Part shown: piece after piece, positions 5,618 through 15,693 of the stretch
How positions within the stretch are numbered: position 1 is the stretch's first letter
Layout of the letters: every line of letters begins with the position of its first letter
Position numbers and translations under genes: made by a program
Origin: a virus
Virus genome (UHGV): UHGV-0190812
Length of the DNA stretch: 18,962 bases
Direction: 5' to 3' (one strand)
The notes under the pieces: generated by a model
Seen by the model: only the letters and a program-made list of their open reading frames with translations
What the model was told of the DNA's origin: nothing
The model's database searches: none

Positions 5618-6475
5618 TCAGCCTACTGTTCTAAAGATGAGAAGTGGTGTCATCCCATACGAATCACTTCCTCTACCAGCTTGTACCTTGACCATATCCA
5701 GGAAGGATTGTAATCCTGACTTGAGATCGTGTTCAGGGAAATCAGGGTTATTGATATTCTGATCTTGTACAGAATCTGGCAAGGCATCAATCAATCCAAT
5801 GACATGCCAGGTACCCGGTATGGTGCCACCATATTTTAAGGCTAAGTCATCAGGATTAATTGTTAAATATTCTTTATCAATAGACATCCACATCAGGTTG
5901 CCATTCTCATCAATAAAATCAACCTGGAGGATGTTGGGAACGATATTAATGAGTTTCTTAACTACACCAATGGTAAGCCCTGGAGATATCTCAATTTCAT
6001 CTGGGGTGAGTTTTCCTTTAAGCTTCGCTTTGGCTTTTGGGGGAAGGTTGACCGTGTTTAATTGTGCTTGGGCTATCTCACCAAAAATAGGCATAATTTT
6101 CTGAATAGTTGACACATCAAAAATGCGCATTTTTCCAACAGAATGAACAACTGAACCAAGATTCTCACCATTAAGTCCAGTTTTAATCATTCCTGCTTCA
6201 TCTAATTTATCGAGAAAATTAATTGGTAATGACCATGAAGCGTCGAAAGTTTTCTCTTGCGAATGTGTTAAGGTGTCGTCAGTCCCCACTTTTCCTTTAA
6301 GAATCTTGACGCTCAATTCAACGGATTTATTAGATTTATCTGTGTCAGAAGTAGTTTGTTTTACGCTCGTCACTACACCAGCATTGTGAAGCTGGGCTGT
6401 GAGGGAGCTAACGCGTACACGGTCTATGTAAAGAAAATCAAATAGTGAATCTGTGCTTTGTTGTTCGAGCTCCAT
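5618..6475 (-). CDS. hypothetical protein, 285 aa (304 aa if started at 6532); repressor-linked cargo, function unknown
   Basis: Long minus-strand ORF between the cI-like gene and pL. ATG at 6475 with AGAGAGGA about 8 nt upstream; alternative ATG at 6532. Appears AT-rich by eye relative to flanking modules. No motif I can assign (no kinase, nuclease, ATPase or TM signatures noted). Confidence 0.6.
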   Translation of the reverse strand: MELEQQSTDSLFDFLYIDRVRVSSLTAQLHNAGVVTSVKQTTSDTDKSNKSVELSVKILKGKVGTDDTLTHSQEKTFDASWSLPINFLDKLDEAGMIKTGLNGENLGSVVHSVGKMRIFDVSTIQKIMPIFGEIAQAQLNTVNLPPKAKAKLKGKLTPDEIEISPGLTIGVVKKLINIVPNILQVDFIDENGNLMWMSIDKEYLTINPDDLALKYGGTIPGTWHVIGLIDALPDSVQDQNINNPDFPEHDLKSGLQSFLDMVKVQAGRGSDSYGMTPLLIFRTVG

Positions 6476-6617
6476 TTTGCCAATCCTCTCTAAATTTTTC
6501 TTTTTCCTCGCGAATTCTTTTTTGCTTTTCATCTATCTCATCGAAAAGTTGAATGAGTTCATCCACACCATGTGAAGGCGTCTCTGATTTCACTTTCTTC
6601 AAAATTTTCTTGAACAT
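6438..6617 (-). CDS. small charged hypothetical protein (59 aa), possible partner of the downstream 285-aa protein
   Basis: First ATG of the 6438-6695 ORF (MFKKILKKVKSETPSHGVDELIQLFDEIDEKQKRIREEKEKFREDWQNGARTTKHRFTI). Overlaps the 5' end of the next gene in another frame. No convincing Shine-Dalgarno. Confidence 0.3.
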   Translation of the reverse strand: MFKKILKKVKSETPSHGVDELIQLFDEIDEKQKRIREEKEKFREDWQNGARTTKHRFTI

Positions 6618-8453: not shown

Positions 8454-9383
8454 ATGGCAAACACTGCTGAGATATTCAATTTTCCAGTGCCGGATGTGGC
8501 ACAAAAGGAGCGGCGCGTGGCAGATCTCGACGATGGTTATACGCGCATTGCAAATGAGTTGCTGGAAGCTGTGATGCTGGCCGGATTAACACAGCACCAG
8601 CTTCTGGTCTTCCTGGCTGTCATGCGCAAAACATATGGCTTTAATAAAAGACTGGATTGGGTGAGCAACGAGCAACTTTCCGAATTGACCGGGATATTGC
8701 CGCACAAGTGTTCTGCTGCAAAAAGCGTTCTGGTAAAGCGTGGGATTCTTATTCAGAGCGGGCGGAATATCGGCATTAATAATGTGGTCAGTGAATGGTC
8801 AACATTACCCGAATCAGGTAAGAAAAATAAAGTTTACCTGAAAGAGGTAAATTTACCTGAATCAGGTAAGAAAAGTTTACCCAAATCAGGTAAAGGCGTT
8901 TACCCGAATCAGGTAAACACAAAAGACAAACTAACAAAAGACAATATAAAACCTTTTTCGTCCGAGAATTCTGGCGAATCCTCTGACCAACCAGAAAACG
9001 ATCTTCCTGTGGTGAAACCGGATGCTGCAATTCAGAGCGGCAGCAAGTGGGGGACAGCAGAAGACCTGACCGCCGCAGAGTGGATGTTTGACATGGTGAA
9101 GACCATCGCGCCATCAGCCAGAAAACCGAATTTTGCAGGGTGGGCTAACGATATCCGCCTGATGCGTGAACGTGACGGACGTAACCACCGCGACATGTGC
9201 GTGCTGTTCCGCTGGGCATGCCAGGACAACTTCTGGTCCGGTAACGTGCTAAGTCCGGCCAAACTCCGCGACAAGTGGACCCAGCTCGAAATCAACCGAA
9301 ACAAGCAACAGGCTGGCGTGACAGCCGGCAAACCAAAACTCGACCTGACGAACACTGACTGGATTTACGGGGTGGAGCTATGA
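8454..9383 (+). CDS. O: replication initiator O (lambda O family) containing the origin iterons
   Basis: From the ATG at 8454 (GGGAGGA Shine-Dalgarno) the N-terminus MANTAEIFNFP...RVADLDDGYTRIANELLEA...LLVFLAVMRKTYGFNK parallels lambda O (MTNTAKILNF...NVADLDDGYARL...VLLAILRKTYGWNK). An in-frame upstream start at 8364 is also possible. Confidence 0.85.
   Translation: MANTAEIFNFPVPDVAQKERRVADLDDGYTRIANELLEAVMLAGLTQHQLLVFLAVMRKTYGFNKRLDWVSNEQLSELTGILPHKCSAAKSVLVKRGILIQSGRNIGINNVVSEWSTLPESGKKNKVYLKEVNLPESGKKSLPKSGKGVYPNQVNTKDKLTKDNIKPFSSENSGESSDQPENDLPVVKPDAAIQSGSKWGTAEDLTAAEWMFDMVKTIAPSARKPNFAGWANDIRLMRERDGRNHRDMCVLFRWACQDNFWSGNVLSPAKLRDKWTQLEINRNKQQAGVTAGKPKLDLTNTDWIYGVEL
8805..8917. repeat. 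ori iterons: four to five ~18-bp internally palindromic repeats TTACC(C/T)GAATCAGGTAA(G/A) followed by an A/T-rich stretch
   Basis: Copies at about 8805, 8853, 8877 and 8900 (23-24 bp or multiples apart), plus a degenerate copy at about 8834. The A/T-rich run 8917-8955 lies immediately downstream. Same architecture as the lambda origin inside O. Confidence 0.7.
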
Positions 9384-10081
9384 AAAACATCGCCGCACAG
9401 ATGGTTAACTTTGACTGTGAGCAGATGCGCCGGATCGCCAACAACATGCCGGAACAGTACGACGAAAAGCCACAGGTACAGCAGGTAGCGCAGATCATCA
9501 ACGGTGTGTTCAGCCAGTTACTGGCAACTTTCCCGGCGAGCCTGGCTAACCGTGACCAGAATGAACTGAACGAAATCCGCCGCCAGTGGGTTCTGGCTTT
9601 CCGGGAAAACGGGATCACCACAATGGAACAGGTTAACGCTGGAATGCGCGTAGCCCGTCGGCAGAATCGACCATTCCTGCCATCACCCGGGCAGTTTGTC
9701 GCCTGGTGCCGGGAAGAAGCATCTGTTAACGCCGGGCTGCCAAACGTCAGCGAGCTGGTTGATATGGTTTACGAGTATTGCCGGAAGCGTGGCCTGTATC
9801 CGGATGCAGAGTCTTATCCGTGGAAATCGAACGCGCATTACTGGTTGGTTACCAACTTGTACCAGAACATGCGGGCCAATGCGCTGACTGACGCGGAATT
9901 ACGGCGCAAGGCTGCCGATGAACTGACCTGTATGACAGCGCGAATTAACCGTGGTGAGACGATACCTGAACCAGTAAAACAACTTCCTGTTATGGGCGGT
10001 AGACCTCTAAATCGTGCACAGGCTCTGGCGAAGATCGCAGAAATCAAAGCTAAGTTTGGGCTGAAAGGAGCAAGTGTATGA
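9380..10081 (+). CDS. P: replication protein P (DnaB helicase loader)
   Basis: 233-aa translation is near-identical to lambda P as recalled (MKNIAAQMVNFD.EQMRRIANNMPEQYDEKPQVQQVAQIINGVFSQLLATFPASLANRDQNE...). Confidence 0.95.
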   Translation: MKNIAAQMVNFDCEQMRRIANNMPEQYDEKPQVQQVAQIINGVFSQLLATFPASLANRDQNELNEIRRQWVLAFRENGITTMEQVNAGMRVARRQNRPFLPSPGQFVAWCREEASVNAGLPNVSELVDMVYEYCRKRGLYPDAESYPWKSNAHYWLVTNLYQNMRANALTDAELRRKAADELTCMTARINRGETIPEPVKQLPVMGGRPLNRAQALAKIAEIKAKFGLKGASV

Positions 10082-10262
10082 CGGGCAAAGAAAGATTCTT
10101 CGTTACTTGAAGAAATACAGTGTTTATTGTTCTTTTGAGATGTTGCGAAAACAGGAATTACCACGGTAAACATTTTGTAGCTGACCCATGCATTGATGAA
10201 ATATTGTGGGTATTTAATAGAGCATAATTATCAAGTTGCGTAAGATGTGGAGTAATGGTATG

Positions 10263-10288
10263 GGCGGTGTTAGCACCGCCTTTAATTA
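10263..10288. terminator. hairpin between P and the 115-aa gene (possible weak terminator)
   Basis: GGCGGTG-TTAG-CACCGCC perfect 7-bp stem followed on the plus strand by TTTAATT; weak U-tract. Confidence 0.3.
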
Positions 10289-10633
10289 AAGCTCAGAAAG
10301 CTGTAATAATATTTTTTCTGGAGTGGTTTCGTTGGAAATGCTAAATAATACAGCACCTTTGACTGATTCATCTCTCATTTCAATTTCACATGAATTATGG
10401 TTGTATGAGATTGCATAATTTTTTAATGTTCTTTCGCTTTGCCACCACACCATATTTGCAAGACTTCCGTTATACGTTCTTATCTCGATTGATCCGGGCA
10501 GGGCTTTCCAGATAACACCTCCTAGCAATGTAAGAGCGGCTGCACCAACATTTTTTGCATGATGGTTAGAACGTTCCATTACCCCTTCAGCATAACGATG
10601 AAGAATCTCTATGTCAGTCGCTTTGATAGTCAT
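10286..10633 (-). CDS. hypothetical protein, 115 aa; reverse-oriented AT-rich moron in the ren slot
   Basis: ORF opposite in orientation to the flanking replication and nin genes, with visibly lower GC and an AT-rich upstream region (10634-10860) containing an extended -10-like TGCTATATT on the minus strand. No family recognised. Confidence 0.55.
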   Translation of the reverse strand: MTIKATDIEILHRYAEGVMERSNHHAKNVGAAALTLLGGVIWKALPGSIEIRTYNGSLANMVWWQSERTLKNYAISYNHNSCEIEMRDESVKGAVLFSISNETTPEKILLQLSEL

Positions 10634-10862
10634 GTTATTTCCATGTAATTGCTGTGTGAAACGTAGTGTTAGTTAGGTGTTAGCAGAATATAGCATCAAA
10701 GTCGAAACCGGTAGAAAAAATATTGGTGATTATTTCGCTGCATTTGGAACTGGAACAACAATGATTATTAGCATGATTGCTTTTTCCAGTCATAAGAATG
10801 AGTCGTGTTAATTTTTTCTATTCAATAGGAAATTATCATGTCATCAGAATATGAACAACTAT

Positions 10863-10960
10863 GGTGACTTCTGCGCTAAACGGGGACGTTTATGCGCACA
10901 TACAATCCAAACTCTCTTCTCCCTCCACAGATGCAGAAATACACCTGCGATTTTTTGCAT
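10863..10960. repeat. ~98-bp direct repeat, copy A (tR2-like terminator module upstream of the cassette)
   Basis: About 95% identical by eye to 13348-13446 (GGTGACTTCTGCGCTAAACGGGGACGTTTATGCGCACA...CACCTGCG-T(7)-GCAT); contains a short GC stem plus T-run. Confidence 0.8.
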
Positions 10961-11111
10961 TCGGTGTTTTTGGCAGCCAAGAACAGGGAGTCTCTGTTTG
11001 TCTGGCGGCTAAAGGTGATATGGAAATCGTGATGTCTTAGCCTAAAGTAGTTGCAACAGTTGGAGCGATTATGGTGGTAGTAGTGATCATCGCGCCCCCC
11101 ATATGCAAGGG

Positions 11112-11224
11112 TTGACGACATTATTTATCCGGCGCTATATTCTGTGCGTTGCCGCAAAATCGGCACACGGGATTGGCGTCCCGGAATACTACTCAACGCA
11201 TACCGCGTTAAGCGGTTTTTTTAT
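11112..11224 (+). promoter_or_regulatory. promoter plus ~75-nt structured leader ending in an intrinsic terminator (attenuator or small RNA) upstream of the Bro-N gene
   Basis: TTGACG (11112-11117), 18-nt spacer, TATATT (11136-11141). Downstream stem-loops TGCCG/CGGCA and CGGGA/TCCCG, then ACCGC-GTTAA-GCGGT followed by T(7) at about 11202-11222. Confidence 0.35.
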
Positions 11225-11378
11225 GCGCTAAGCACGGCTACGCCCAAATTATGGTGGGCTGTGTGAGGGCTTCTTCGGGAGCGCCGGGTTTGAGTAGCCG
11301 GTTACGCCAACCTTGCACAGTTCACCACCAGTCGATTGGCGTCGTTGGTGGTGATGGTTAACCTGATGAGGTGATACT

Positions 11379-11939
11379 ATGACTACTCAATTAGCATTCC
11401 ACAAAACGACGTTTACCCCAATTTGCCACAATAACAGAATTTGGCTTACTGCCACTGAAGTTGGTTTAGCTCTGGAATATGCGGACGATAAAGCAGTTCA
11501 GCGCATTTACTCTCGTCACTCAGATGAATTTACAGATATGATGACAAGGGTGGTCAAAGTGACCACCCCTCGTGGAATGCAGGAGTCTCGAGTATTTAGC
11601 CTTCGCGGAGCCCATTTGATCGCCATGTTTGCACGAACTCCTGTAGCCAAAGAGTTCCGCCGCTGGGTTCTGGATATTCTCGATCGAGAAGTTCAACAAT
11701 CCCCAATCATAAAACAATTCACTGATAACGAACTTTGCACACTTGCTTGGTTATGGCGAGCAGGGGATGTGATGTTAACCGCCTGCCAGAATGTTACTCC
11801 ACTTCTTCAGGTTGCGGAGCACCGCGAAGCTGGTCGCTTTACTTCTATCGGGCAAGAATATCCCCAGATACTACATAAGGCGCGCGAAATCCTTGCCAGA
11901 GAAACGGCACCATGTAAAACTCCAGCCTTGGCAGGATAA
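11379..11939 (+). CDS. Bro-N domain protein (putative antirepressor-like)
   Basis: 186-aa ORF. N-terminal FHKTTFTPICHNNRIWLTATEVGLALEY...IYSRHSDEF...VFSLRGAHLIAMFARTPVAKEFRRWVLDIL fits the Bro-N fold motif pattern of phage antirepressors. GAGGTGA Shine-Dalgarno. Confidence 0.7.
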   Translation: MTTQLAFHKTTFTPICHNNRIWLTATEVGLALEYADDKAVQRIYSRHSDEFTDMMTRVVKVTTPRGMQESRVFSLRGAHLIAMFARTPVAKEFRRWVLDILDREVQQSPIIKQFTDNELCTLAWLWRAGDVMLTACQNVTPLLQVAEHREAGRFTSIGQEYPQILHKAREILARETAPCKTPALAG

Positions 11940-12150
11940 TAAGTGGAGCAGGGTGTTGCCACATTTGCGTCAGGATAGATTGCAATAGTTTTACATATTA
12001 GGCGCTGAATGGATGCAATCAGATAGCGCACTGGGCGGCAATGATTAAGGCTTCAGATAAGCCAAGTAAGCACTGAAAAAGTTCAATGTAATCAAATTCT
12101 CTTTATGGTATTTTCGTTAGACATCTCATACGCTTAGATGGAAATTTGAA

Positions 12151-12351
12151 ATGATGTATTCAGTAACTTTCGATGAAACTGGACGAGTAGAAGATATTGA
12201 ACTAGAGCGTGAGGTTAGAGCCGGAGATAGACTCTCGCTTAATATTGATGGTCTTGATGGTATTTATATAGTCATGACTGTTAGCGGCCCTATCTATGAA
12301 AATGTTTGTGTGCCAATGAATATCCGGGTTCAAAAGTATTGGAAGCAATGA
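12151..12351 (+). CDS. hypothetical small protein (66 aa)
   Basis: ORF within the repeat-flanked cassette, followed directly by a hairpin terminator. Weak Shine-Dalgarno; no family recognised. Confidence 0.3.
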   Translation: MMYSVTFDETGRVEDIELEREVRAGDRLSLNIDGLDGIYIVMTVSGPIYENVCVPMNIRVQKYWKQ

Positions 12352-12356
12352 TGTAT

Positions 12357-12385
12357 AATCCCCTCAGATGATCGAGGGGATTTTT
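12357..12385 (+). terminator. intrinsic terminator hairpin whose 3' arm contains the Shine-Dalgarno of the next ORF
   Basis: ATCCCCTC-AGATGAT-GAGGGGAT stem (8 bp) followed by TTTTT, then the ATG at 12386; the GAGGGGA in the 3' arm is the only Shine-Dalgarno for that ORF. Confidence 0.45.
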
Positions 12386-12559
12386 ATGTCAGATTGGAAC
12401 ATTGCAGCAAAACCGCAAGAGGAACGTGACAATGTTAACTTTGACCTTGCTGCGTCTGGTGTTGCATATAAAGAACGCTCCAAAATTCTCGTCATAGCCG
12501 AAGTGGTGATGTGCCAGCAACCAGAGCATCTTTGTGATTACTTCATGGAGCGCGTCTGA
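12386..12559 (+). CDS. hypothetical small protein (57 aa)
   Basis: ATG at 12386 with GAGGGGA 5 nt upstream; the track ORF starts 18 nt earlier at 12368. No family recognised. Confidence 0.35.
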   Translation: MSDWNIAAKPQEERDNVNFDLAASGVAYKERSKILVIAEVVMCQQPEHLCDYFMERV

Positions 12560-12631
12560 CTTCTCCATTGAGCATAGCATCACCCAGCCTAAAACATCTG
12601 ACCCTAGATATATGAAACAGGAGGAAGATAA

Positions 12632-13264
12632 ATGAAATTCTCTCGAATTGAACAAAGCCCAACAACGGATGAGGGTAATTACGTGAAAATCGATCATGAC
12701 TTTGGCTATTTTCTAGATCCTAATAAAATGGCCTCGATAGCTAACTATGAGGATGAGTCTGCCGCGCTATTAAAATTGATGCTAATTCATGAGGACTTTC
12801 TTCGGGTTGTTATTGAAAACTTACGACCTGATGGCTCTGAAAAATACAATTCGATAAGAAGCTATAAGTATTTTGCGTCAAAGCTGTCTGCCGCAGTTCT
12901 GTTAGGGCTTCCTGTCTCGCTTGCAGACGCTATGGCTGAGCTCAACACAATACGTAACAAGTACGCTCATAAAATTGAATATGTAATTACAAATGAAGAG
13001 GTTGATAAACTCGCAGAATCGATTAAAAACATAAAGTTAGAAGAGATTAACCATGGTGGCTACGTGCATCAAGTTGTTGAGCCAATTCTCAAGGATGGAA
13101 TCTACGCTATAGCGTTGATGAAAGAGCTACCTCCTGATCTTGAAGAAAATCGCATTCGTATTTGTAAGTTAGTCACTAGCGCGCATTGTATGTGTTTGCT
13201 CGGGGCCTTCTGGTTAATTAACACTCTGCACGTAAAGGGTAAGCTCAAGCTTTCCAAGGCCTGA
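12632..13264 (+). CDS. hypothetical protein (210 aa) with HEPN-like Rx4H motif; candidate abortive-infection or toxin RNase
   Basis: Strong AGGAGG Shine-Dalgarno. Markedly AT-rich by eye. Contains ELNTIRNKYAHK (R-x4-H in an RN..AH context, as in HEPN families such as Abi_2 or DUF4145). The assignment is inference from this one motif. Confidence 0.6.
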   Translation: MKFSRIEQSPTTDEGNYVKIDHDFGYFLDPNKMASIANYEDESAALLKLMLIHEDFLRVVIENLRPDGSEKYNSIRSYKYFASKLSAAVLLGLPVSLADAMAELNTIRNKYAHKIEYVITNEEVDKLAESIKNIKLEEINHGGYVHQVVEPILKDGIYAIALMKELPPDLEENRIRICKLVTSAHCMCLLGAFWLINTLHVKGKLKLSKA

Positions 13265-13347
13265 GTAGATCAATCGTATCATTTTCGCAAAATTGATTCT
13301 CCGTAATCAATTCGCCATAATTGTATCACCGGAGCCTGAACAACTTC

Positions 13348-13446
13348 GGTGACTTCTGCGCTAAACGGGGACGTTTATGCGCACACACAATCCAAACTCT
13401 CTTCTCCCTTCACAGATGCAGAAATGCACCTGCGTTTTTTTGCATC
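13348..13446. repeat. ~98-bp direct repeat, copy B (tR2-like module immediately upstream of ninB)
   Basis: Near-identical to 10863-10960 with about five mismatches. Confidence 0.8.
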
Positions 13447-13474
13447 CAGCGTCTGACCTCTACGGAGGTGAAGC

Positions 13475-14748: not shown

Positions 14749-14878
14749 GTCTTATATGGCAGAACGTCTTCGCCACCGCAGGATGCGCCTGCGCTTATAT
14801 CGTTTCCCCGGTTCTGTTTTGACCGATTACCGGATACTGAAGAATTACGCCAAAACACTGAAAGGAGCTGCCGCATGA
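14741..14878 (+). CDS. ylcG: YlcG-like small protein
   Basis: 45-aa ORF below the track cut-off ([45 protein letters not shown]). Overlaps the rusA stop and the Q start (ATGA). Matches DLP12 YlcG as recalled. Confidence 0.5.
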
Positions 14879-15564
14879 ATACCCAATATTTACAGTATGT
14901 CCGCGAGCAACTCATTGTGGCTACTGCTGATTTGAGCGGAGCAACGAAAGGCCAGCTTGAAGCCTGGCTGGAGCATGCACAATTTGATACTGGTACATAT
15001 AAACGAAAGAAGCCGCGCATTCTGGATGAGGTAACGGGCAAGATGATTACGCTGGATAATCCGCCGATTTCCGGTAAGCAGTCGTACGCAAAAGGTTCAT
15101 CCATTGCACTGGTCAGCCAGGTTGAGTTCTCAACATCTTCATGGCGCCGCGCGGTTCTGTCTCTCGAAGAACATCAGAAAGCGTGGTTGCTGTGGAGTTA
15201 CAGTGAAAACATCAGCTTTGAATACCAGGTGGCGATCACCCAGTGGGCGTGGTCTGAATTCAGGGGGTATCTCGGCGCGAAGAGGGTGGCAGGCAAGACC
15301 ATGGAGCGCCTGAAGAAGCTGATATGGCTGGCAGCGCAGGATGTCAAAGCAGGGTTGGTCGGGAAAGATGCCTACGAATACCAGAAGCTGGCGGAACTGG
15401 TTGGCGTGGCGAAATCCACCTGGACAGAGACATACCTGCCTCACTGGTTGGCAATGCGTAGCTGCTTTATGCGACTCGATAGCGGTGCGCTTATCTCAGT
15501 AACGCGATCACGTTCACAACAAAAGGCGACAAGTTCGCACGTAAGTCTTGCAAAACCGAACTGA
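14875..15564 (+). CDS. late-gene antiterminator Q (QuuD-like)
   Basis: 229-aa ORF directly after rusA-ylcG, upstream of a candidate late promoter and the lysis cassette. Assignment by synteny and length; no motif independently verified. Confidence 0.6.
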   Translation: MNTQYLQYVREQLIVATADLSGATKGQLEAWLEHAQFDTGTYKRKKPRILDEVTGKMITLDNPPISGKQSYAKGSSIALVSQVEFSTSSWRRAVLSLEEHQKAWLLWSYSENISFEYQVAITQWAWSEFRGYLGAKRVAGKTMERLKKLIWLAAQDVKAGLVGKDAYEYQKLAELVGVAKSTWTETYLPHWLAMRSCFMRLDSGALISVTRSRSQQKATSSHVSLAKPN

Positions 15565-15693
15565 AACGCTTATATTTCATGTAAATCTGATATCGTCGCC
15601 ATAGCTTTGTTGGTCGACAAAGAATTAACAGCCTCGCCATCGTGCGGGGCTTTTACTTTACATGCTGTGAACACAAAAAAAGTAACTTTTATG

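Follow-up and report, generated by a model that had tools for sequence, protein, structure and literature searches.

An antisense Vch_cass14-family gene in the ren-equivalent slot of an Escherichia coli lambdoid prophage has sequence features of a moron

What kind of gene can be found in the interval from P, a replication gene, to the nin region of a lambdoid prophage, turned against the early operon? In lambda this interval holds ren, a plus-strand accessory gene that is read from pR and is linked to phage exclusion, because it counters Rex. The virus genome UHGV-0190812, an 18,962-bp window to which all coordinates and strands given here refer, contains the immunity, replication and nin regions of an E. 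coli lambdoid prophage and carries a minus-strand gene in the same slot. A first-pass annotation, made from the sequence letters, had described this gene as a low-GC, reverse-oriented frame of 115 codons behind an AT-rich region with an extended -10-like element, and had read it as a moron of unknown function that is likely expressed from the prophage. We find that it encodes a protein of the Vch_cass14 family (PF18315). The family is known, though functionally orphan, and the accessory unit that carries the gene is of a kind common in prophages, so this is not a new kind of system.

The open reading frame (ORF) lies on the minus strand with an ATG start exactly where it had been placed (Table 1), and its ren-equivalent position was confirmed: 204 bp separate it from the stop codon of P, which is on the opposite strand. 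The reported compositional contrast was also borne out, as the GC content is 0.382 in the gene (0.30 at third codon positions) and 0.326 in the upstream stretch 10634-10860, compared with 0.534 in P and 0.467 in the whole window. Because the window holds 45 ORFs of at least 90 residues, the length of an ORF by itself is no proof of a gene. We consider this one real because of its homology to entries in Pfam, PHROG and the PDB and because non-synonymous divergence (pN) is far below synonymous divergence (pS). The only significant Pfam match of the protein is PF18315 (VCH_CASS14), for which it scores 71.7 bits (cut-off 26.7 bits; E 5.8e-20) across profile positions 2-92 of 97; it also matches PHROG 5959, a family of unknown function (E 1e-79), and PDB entry 3IMO (phmmer E 1.4e-17), with 35% of 104 aligned residues identical. 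The name 'Vch_cass14 family protein' is already used in some RefSeq records, and NCBIfam gave no match. The earlier description can thus be sharpened by the membership in the PF18315/3IMO family.

The frame is conserved as coding in related elements, contrary to an outcome that would have refuted the first-pass reading. Orthologues with 73-78% (Citrobacter) and 64% (Serratia) amino acid identity keep the full 115 codons, and pN against the Citrobacter orthologues is 0.15, compared with a pS of 0.72-0.80. Across the Citrobacter and Serratia orthologues together, non-synonymous divergence is 0.15-0.23 and synonymous sites are saturated at 0.66-0.86. Judged by these divergences, the gene is under strong purifying selection. 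The E. coli allele was found in 181 of 5426 complete genomes (~3%), counting copies that cover at least 80% of the gene length, with reading frames not inspected copy by copy. Each of the 181 copies is chromosomal and the only one in its genome; they share at least 99% identity and lie at differing chromosomal positions in O157:H7, O26, O103, O111, porcine enterotoxigenic E. coli (ETEC) and other strains; 178 E. coli genomes hold at least 80% of 10082-11378. None of 50,697 cultured phage records encodes the gene, and 23 viral contigs in IMG/VR contain a relative. The family as a whole is small: 1.84 billion representatives yielded 469 clusters (E up to 1e-3), and most of its members are stand-alone proteins of about 113 residues.

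The structural relative, 3IMO, is Vch_cass14, a Vibrio cholerae integron-cassette protein that was confirmed to be a dimer in solution (Sureshan et al. 2013, PMC3548836). Its crystal structure has a deep, hydrophobic cavity, ~15 Å long, which contained an unidentified linear aliphatic molecule, and the mouth of the cavity (Tyr14, Arg21 and Asn60) bound acetate; its authors suggested a function in catalysis, sequestration or transport (PMC3548836). This paper of 2013 was the only one that we found in a literature search for Vch_cass14, 3IMO, PF18315, phrog_5959 and WP_000152742. The prophage protein shares the two-layer alpha+beta sandwich fold with the order beta1-alpha1-alpha2-beta2..beta6-alpha3. 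All three gate residues are identical to those of 3IMO, and 12 of the 20 pocket residues are identical while the other 8 are conservative replacements. Across 68 diverse family members, Y14, H25, N60, W63 and Y77 are at least 90% conserved. An invariant polar cluster is formed by Y14, R21, H24, H25, N60, Y77, H79, E85 and R87. The protein has a net charge of -2 and a pI of 6.1, and no signal peptide or membrane segment was seen in its sequence. A cytoplasmic location is predicted, since there is no N-terminal hydrophobic segment and the sole hydrophobic run (residues 31-42) corresponds to helix alpha2, which is buried in 3IMO.

A few family members carry additional domains. In five of these fusions (P0130, P0136, P0138, P0109 and P0106) the addition is solely a C-terminal, Lys/Ala/Pro-rich, histone-H1-like basic tail of low complexity; one fusion has an N-terminal Clp_N domain (P0159), and one has an N-terminal duplicated domain, a repeat of unknown type (P0034). 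The basic tails hint at nucleoid association in one subfamily, although the family is not generally basic. None of the fusions matches the 165-residue partner protein described below.

The position of the gene in related prophages and phages is that of an inserted unit. RefSeq prophages that are 99.5% identical over 10082-11378 have an integrase at tRNA-Thr, exo-bet-gam-kil, an S24 repressor, a cro-like gene, YdaT, O and P, followed by the Vch_cass14 gene, an antirepressor module, variable cargo and ybcN-ninE-ybcO-rusA-ylcG-Q. Lambdoid phages in culture have the same DNA to the right of about 10822 but lack 10082-10821 (740 bp). Because this segment is absent from phages with a common flank, we regard the ~740 bp as an inserted moron unit. 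The gene is thus present or absent between conserved flanks, and its base composition is distinct from that of its neighbours. Phage IdasGreatGrand has different genes after P, and the interval from the replication genes to ybcN/ninB holds different cargo in each prophage or phage that was compared. In prophages of C. koseri and the C. freundii complex, the orthologue is likewise a lone, low-GC gene that is antisense to the early operon and lies between the replication genes and ninB/rusA/Q, with replication modules that differ from one backbone to the next (DnaB-type, O plus DnaC-type, and DnaT plus DnaC-type). The enterobacterial-type IMG/VR contigs (L076-L079 and L081) also carry a lone, reverse-oriented, low-GC gene, and in the Citrobacter-type viral contigs the GC content of the gene copy is 0.40-0.43 vs 0.52-0.54. 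The moron reading of the first-pass annotation is therefore upheld as to absence from flank-sharing phages, foreign composition and reverse orientation in at least three other prophage backbones, in Citrobacter, and in the IMG/VR contigs; the promoter, which it also implied, and the hairpin are ambiguous evidence.

The stretch 10634-10860, which had been taken as the promoter region of the gene, is AT-rich as described, although its last ~50 bp (10808-10860) belong to the duplicated 'orf33'/nin-leader module. The extended -10-like element is present ahead of the gene, with a predicted transcription start near 10680. It is the only match to TGNTAWAWT on either strand of the window; since ~3.2 matches are expected by chance, the count is unremarkable and the position alone is informative. 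Owing to its poor -35, the site was missed by a generic sigma-70 scan, whose minus-strand hits were weak or overlapped the start codon. The block ahead of the ATG (AAGGAAAT / AAGGGGAT / AAGGATAC) is kept in the Citrobacter and Serratia copies, and a 22-nt block with the extended -10, the best conserved part of the upstream region, is identical to the C. freundii copies at 19 of 22 nt, while the DNA on either side barely aligns. Past the stop codon, a GC-rich hairpin has a predicted folding energy of -13.6 kcal/mol (z -3.8) on the minus strand and -19.5 kcal/mol (z -3.5) on the plus strand. A hairpin occurs at the matching place in the C. koseri and C. freundii copies with compensatory stem changes (stems compared: GGCGGTG/CACCGCC, GGCGGCA/TGCCGCC and GCGGCA/TGCCGC). 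The Shine-Dalgarno block, the 22-nt -10 block and the hairpin are thus three non-coding features that survive despite the saturation of synonymous sites, and we infer that the extended -10 element probably has promoter activity.

In C. koseri, an intact gene resembling that for DNA polymerase III theta (HolE) abuts the cassette. We asked the same of the window, where 10677-10811 was considered as a frameshifted relic of a divergent theta-like gene; the match is limited to 7 residues (NIASKS, E 0.2), which leaves the idea a weak lead.

Neighbouring genes elsewhere were analysed in 45 loci from GTDB genomes, found by a locus search based on 11 sequences, whose neighbouring ORFs were clustered; the loci span Alphaproteobacteria, Cyanobacteria, Bacteroidota, Acidobacteriota, Planctomycetota, Myxococcota and others. 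In Serratia marcescens (L009-L011, 6218-8348), a gap of 35 nt separates an AIPR/AbiU gene from the Vch_cass14 gene downstream of it, and in a metagenome-assembled genome of Bacteroidaceae (L040, 6001-8512) a Vch_cass14 gene is found with an AIPR/AbiU-like gene across a 383-nt gap. This pairing in two distant phyla possibly represents a two-gene abortive-infection module that is not described in PADLOC. A tyrosine recombinase gene overlaps the Vch_cass14 stop codon in 4 loci. Operonic neighbours seen in single cases were HsdS, DruA, ArdC, HNH, PD-(D/E)xK, NucS-like, PIN-DUF3368 and MtlR-like genes; the Vch_cass14 gene starts 9 nt after the anti-restriction gene ArdC in a Sphingomonas locus, and the MtlR-like protein, with an R-x4-H motif, is encoded downstream of it in Sorangium. 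One metagenomic locus has DUF6530 next to an MmeI-type enzyme and TacAT. In an uncontrolled count over 47 loci, which gave 149 non-redundant neighbours at distances of up to 2.2 kb, the commonest were phage integrase (6), AIPR, ArdC, TIR, HigB-like and N6-methylase (2 each) and transposases; PIN (2), Thoeris ThsA, Druantia DruA and components of type IIG and type I restriction-modification systems were also among them. By this uncontrolled count, the content of defence and mobile-element genes near the family is far above that of ordinary chromosome.

In 14 alphaproteobacterial loci, a 165-residue protein that belongs to no Pfam family is translationally coupled downstream of the Vch_cass14 gene. 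In these operons (among L017-L033; e.g. L032, 7-846), the stop and start codons overlap or are 3-4 nt apart. The 165-residue protein has invariant R43, G46 and H47 and an EPxRN motif, and its predicted fold is a helical bundle (predicted local distance difference test score 93). In six of the alphaproteobacterial loci, a Fic/DOC gene follows the 165-residue gene and is itself followed by DUF932 and ParB-like genes, in DNA of integrative and conjugative elements or plasmids. In the window, no credible ORF of at least 20 residues is coupled to the Vch_cass14 gene within 10082-10860. No adjacent co-oriented partner gene of the kind found in toxin-antitoxin pairs is present, and coupled partners exist solely in other taxa.

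From these results we favour, with confidence about evenly balanced between acceptance and doubt, a model in which the gene is a moron that is expressed in lysogens and encodes a cytoplasmic ligand-binding dimer with a role in conflicts between phages, other mobile elements and host immunity. A foreign, low-GC, single-gene unit would have entered the stretch from P to the nin leader, in an orientation opposite to that of the pR early operon, where its own extended -10 promoter probably drives a leftward monocistronic transcript in the lysogen. The hairpin would bound the unit and face the incoming pR transcript. In lytic growth, N-antiterminated transcription from pR would run antisense through the gene and oppose its expression. 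The product is a small soluble alpha+beta sandwich of the Vch_cass14 family and would form a dimer. Because the gate and the pocket are conserved, we propose that it most likely binds either a small amphipathic molecule or a partner that presents an extended hydrophobic moiety; action as a DNA-binding regulator or as a membrane protein is most likely not its mode. The lysogen and the prophage might benefit through superinfection exclusion or through the modulation of an abortive-infection or toxin module, and such a conflict role appears the most likely one because the family occurs almost only on mobile elements, beside defence, anti-defence and toxin genes.

Several observations weigh against this model. 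The promoter call is one consensus match with a poor -35, and in Citrobacter the -10 block doubles as the N-terminal coding sequence (MSDFNIAAK) of the divergent theta-like gene, so that its conservation is not purely evidence for a promoter and may partly reflect coding constraint. The hairpin has a U-rich tail on the plus (phage early) strand only and none on the strand of the gene. The U-tract on the plus strand means that it may insulate the cassette from pR read-through, and stopping read-through from P may be at least as likely a role as terminating the gene's own transcript. In distant phage contigs, one of them 206 kb long, the Vch_cass14 gene is co-oriented with its neighbours, so lysogen-specific expression is no family trait. 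As for the function, PADLOC-DB v2 models of defence proteins gave 0 families at E up to 1, BFVD viral structures gave no match, and no informative fold relatives were found beyond 3IMO. The family as a whole, with a median net charge of -1 (prophage protein, -2), does not share the strongly basic surface of 3IMO, and the aliphatic ligand in 3IMO could be a crystallisation artefact. Some of the 149 neighbours are housekeeping genes, and the apparent enrichment is that of an uncontrolled count.

A more general version of the model would make the Vch_cass14 fold a hitherto unrecognised class of mobile-element conflict factor, in which small ligand-gated dimers either act alone and sequester an amphipathic signal or a lipid-like molecule, or switch HEPN/AIPR-type abortive-infection nucleases on and off, with the lysogen-expressed prophage copy giving superinfection exclusion or shielding from host abortive infection; we regard this extension as speculative and rather unlikely. 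It is also unlikely, in our estimate, that the protein is a counter-defence factor, which would protect its carrier phage or element either by sequestering a signalling molecule or by blocking part of the host defence, in the manner of the small sponge proteins of phages or of anti-restriction factors. That task would suit a small dimer whose gated pocket is conserved, and in keeping with it are the ArdC-adjacent gene in Sphingomonas, the alphaproteobacterial copies beside DUF932 and ParB-like genes typical of conjugative transfer regions, and the co-orientation with phage genes in the distant phage contigs. However, all enterobacterial prophage copies are antisense to the early lytic operon and have their own promoter-like element, which fits expression in the lysogen and not early infection; moreover, there is no similarity to known anti-defence folds, and a hydrophobic linear pocket is poorly suited to nucleotide messengers. 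Equally doubtful is an orphan antitoxin or regulator of HEPN/AIPR-type abortive-infection nucleases; on this view family members elsewhere would be the small partners of a nuclease toxin, and the solitary prophage copy would neutralise or tune a HEPN or abortive-infection module of the host or the prophage. The AIPR/AbiU neighbours in two distant phyla and the MtlR-like neighbour in Sorangium speak for it, together with the operonic PD-(D/E)xK, NucS-like and HNH nucleases at other loci, a weakly HEPN-like ORF (12632..13264) in the prophage region and a PF05168 HEPN gene in sister prophages. On the other hand, the prophage gene has no partner ORF beside it, the family consists mostly of solitary members (integron cassettes, prophages), and the resemblance of the 165-residue partner to HEPN proteins is no better than that to generic helical bundles and has no sequence or profile support. 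The cargo in the variable slot downstream also differs between prophages and is unrelated; a fixed pair of Vch_cass14 and HEPN-like cargo genes was rejected, as the slot genes of the window, L002 and the Citrobacter locus L004 are unrelated.

Somewhat harder to credit is a lysogenic-conversion factor that acts on host physiology, for example a cytoplasmic binder of a fatty-acid or lipid-like ligand that alters signalling or stress tolerance in Shiga toxin-producing E. coli or ETEC. The aliphatic ligand and carboxylate-binding mouth of 3IMO, with the sequestering, transport or enzymatic role proposed by its authors, point in this direction, the invariant polar cluster could be catalytic, and the carriers are mainly O157, O26, O103, O111 and porcine ETEC. 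This lineage distribution, however, may merely track the load of lambdoid prophages; the neighbours across phyla are defence and mobile-element genes and not those of lipid metabolism, and a signal peptide or membrane segment is absent. Finally, the near-identity of the E. coli copies, which leaves little time for decay within E. coli, and the resemblance of the adjacent upstream DNA to a decayed relic would be compatible with a functionless hitch-hiker, a decaying remnant whose ORF persists because the insertion is recent. The low pN relative to pS and the conservation across genera effectively exclude it, as the orthologues at 64-78% identity keep the 115-codon frame, the family has 469 clusters in many phyla and the pocket residues are conserved.

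How does the lysogen-expressed moron that we favour compare with known systems? An integron gene cassette is a promoterless ORF with an attC site inside an integron array. The V. cholerae gene is such a cassette, whereas the prophage gene is a reverse-oriented moron with a promoter-like element, located between P and the nin leader and followed downstream only by a simple 20-nt hairpin; no attC-like structure was seen there, as judged without a formal attC model. The proteins also differ, in that 3IMO has a pronounced basic sheet surface and the prophage protein is negatively charged. Classical lambdoid morons, as defined by Hendrix and co-workers, include lambda bor/lom and rexAB, P22 sieB and those of HK97 type. 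Like these, the Vch_cass14 gene is an extra gene between conserved genes, with deviant composition, promoter-like and hairpin elements and an orientation that permits expression from a repressed prophage; unlike them, its promoter and terminator are predicted only, and it has no sequence or fold relation to them. With lambda ren it shares the map position between P and the nin region, but it is on the minus strand and unrelated, its sole significant Pfam match being PF18315. The repeated operon-like placement of family members beside AIPR/AbiU, MtlR-like and other nucleases recalls the small partners of HEPN/AIPR nucleases, such as MNT antitoxins. In contrast to these, the Vch_cass14 fold is no nucleotidyltransferase and the prophage gene has no adjacent partner, so that the link is guilt by association.

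Table 1. Positions of the Vch_cass14-family gene and of features around it
Feature	Position	Strand	Remark
P gene	9380..10081	+	annotated as 'replication protein P' in RefSeq prophages of 99.5% identity
Cassette-specific low-GC DNA (GC about 0.37)	10082..10807		bounded by the P stop codon and the repeated nin-leader module
GC-rich hairpin, 7-8 bp stem, 4-nt loop	10262..10281		5 nt past the stop codon
Vch_cass14-family (PF18315) coding sequence	10286..10633	-	ATG start, 115 residues
Shine-Dalgarno-like GGAAA	10638..10642	-	7 nt upstream of the ATG; read from sequence
Extended -10 promoter-like element TGCTATATT (TGcTATATT)	10695-10687	-	53 nt upstream of the ATG
Weak -35-like TCTACC	10715-10710	-	poor match
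Direct repeat copy A, phage-82 'orf33'/nin-leader module	10808..10967	+	repeat family D1, 160 nt; alignment to phage 82 record X92588
Terminator-like hairpin with T-run	10932-10949		in repeat copy A

Other parts of the window were also annotated. The nin-leader module that borders the cassette (Table 1) has a second copy, B, at 13293-13452, and the core 10852-10962, of about 110 nt, is about 95% identical between the copies. The two copies bracket a cargo block (10968-13292) with isrK, antirepressor, theta and HEPN-like genes, which suggests that the block was gained, or can be lost, via recombination between the leader copies. Directly to the right of the cassette, 11112-11939 on the plus strand contains a module similar to P1/P7 immI or Gifsy-1 IsrK. 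It has a near-consensus promoter (TTGACG-18-TATATT, 11112-11141), Rfam matches to isrK (11150-11222, 60.7 bits), c4-a1b1 targets (11135-11187) and C4 antisense RNA (11247-11332, 72.7 bits), and a Bro-N/P22AR-C antirepressor-like gene (11379..11939), and it looks like an RNA-controlled antirepressor switch within the nin region. Further right on the plus strand are a gene similar to that for DNA polymerase III theta (12368-12559; PF06440, E 6e-20) and an ORF of 210 residues (12632-13264) with an R-N-x-x-A-H motif and sub-threshold matches to HEPN families (DUF4145, RiboL-PSP and Swt1). What follows the theta gene is unrelated from one sister prophage to another: ETEC1720 and O157 carry a PF05168 HEPN pair there, L002 and Citrobacter have other genes, and the slot is one of variable cargo.

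A minus-strand gene of 304 residues (5618-6532) occupies the rexAB-equivalent slot beside the S24 repressor. It is named 'DUF6414 family protein' in RefSeq and is rare, with 7 carriers among 5426 complete E. coli genomes; the PDB contains no sequence relative. Sister prophages have BamE-like, PP2C plus Ser/Thr kinase, or SIR2 genes in this slot, which is likely another defence-cargo position. An Rfam match to the Hfq-binding small RNA isrJ (15580-15653, plus strand; 64.9 bits vs a gathering score of 37) lies just downstream of an ORF of 229 residues (14875..15564), in a map region that holds the Q antiterminator in sister prophages.

The gene described here offers a tractable E. coli entry to a family for which a crystal structure became available in 2009 and no function has been assigned. 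Its value is that of a candidate for exclusion and anti-defence screens and of a genetic handle on an orphan fold; without a phenotype, it would be an ordinary hypothetical moron. If a phenotype of phage exclusion or modulation of abortive infection proved true, it would give a role to the whole PF18315 family, including the integron cassettes, and the slot from P to nin in lambdoid phages would be another hotspot of defence cargo.

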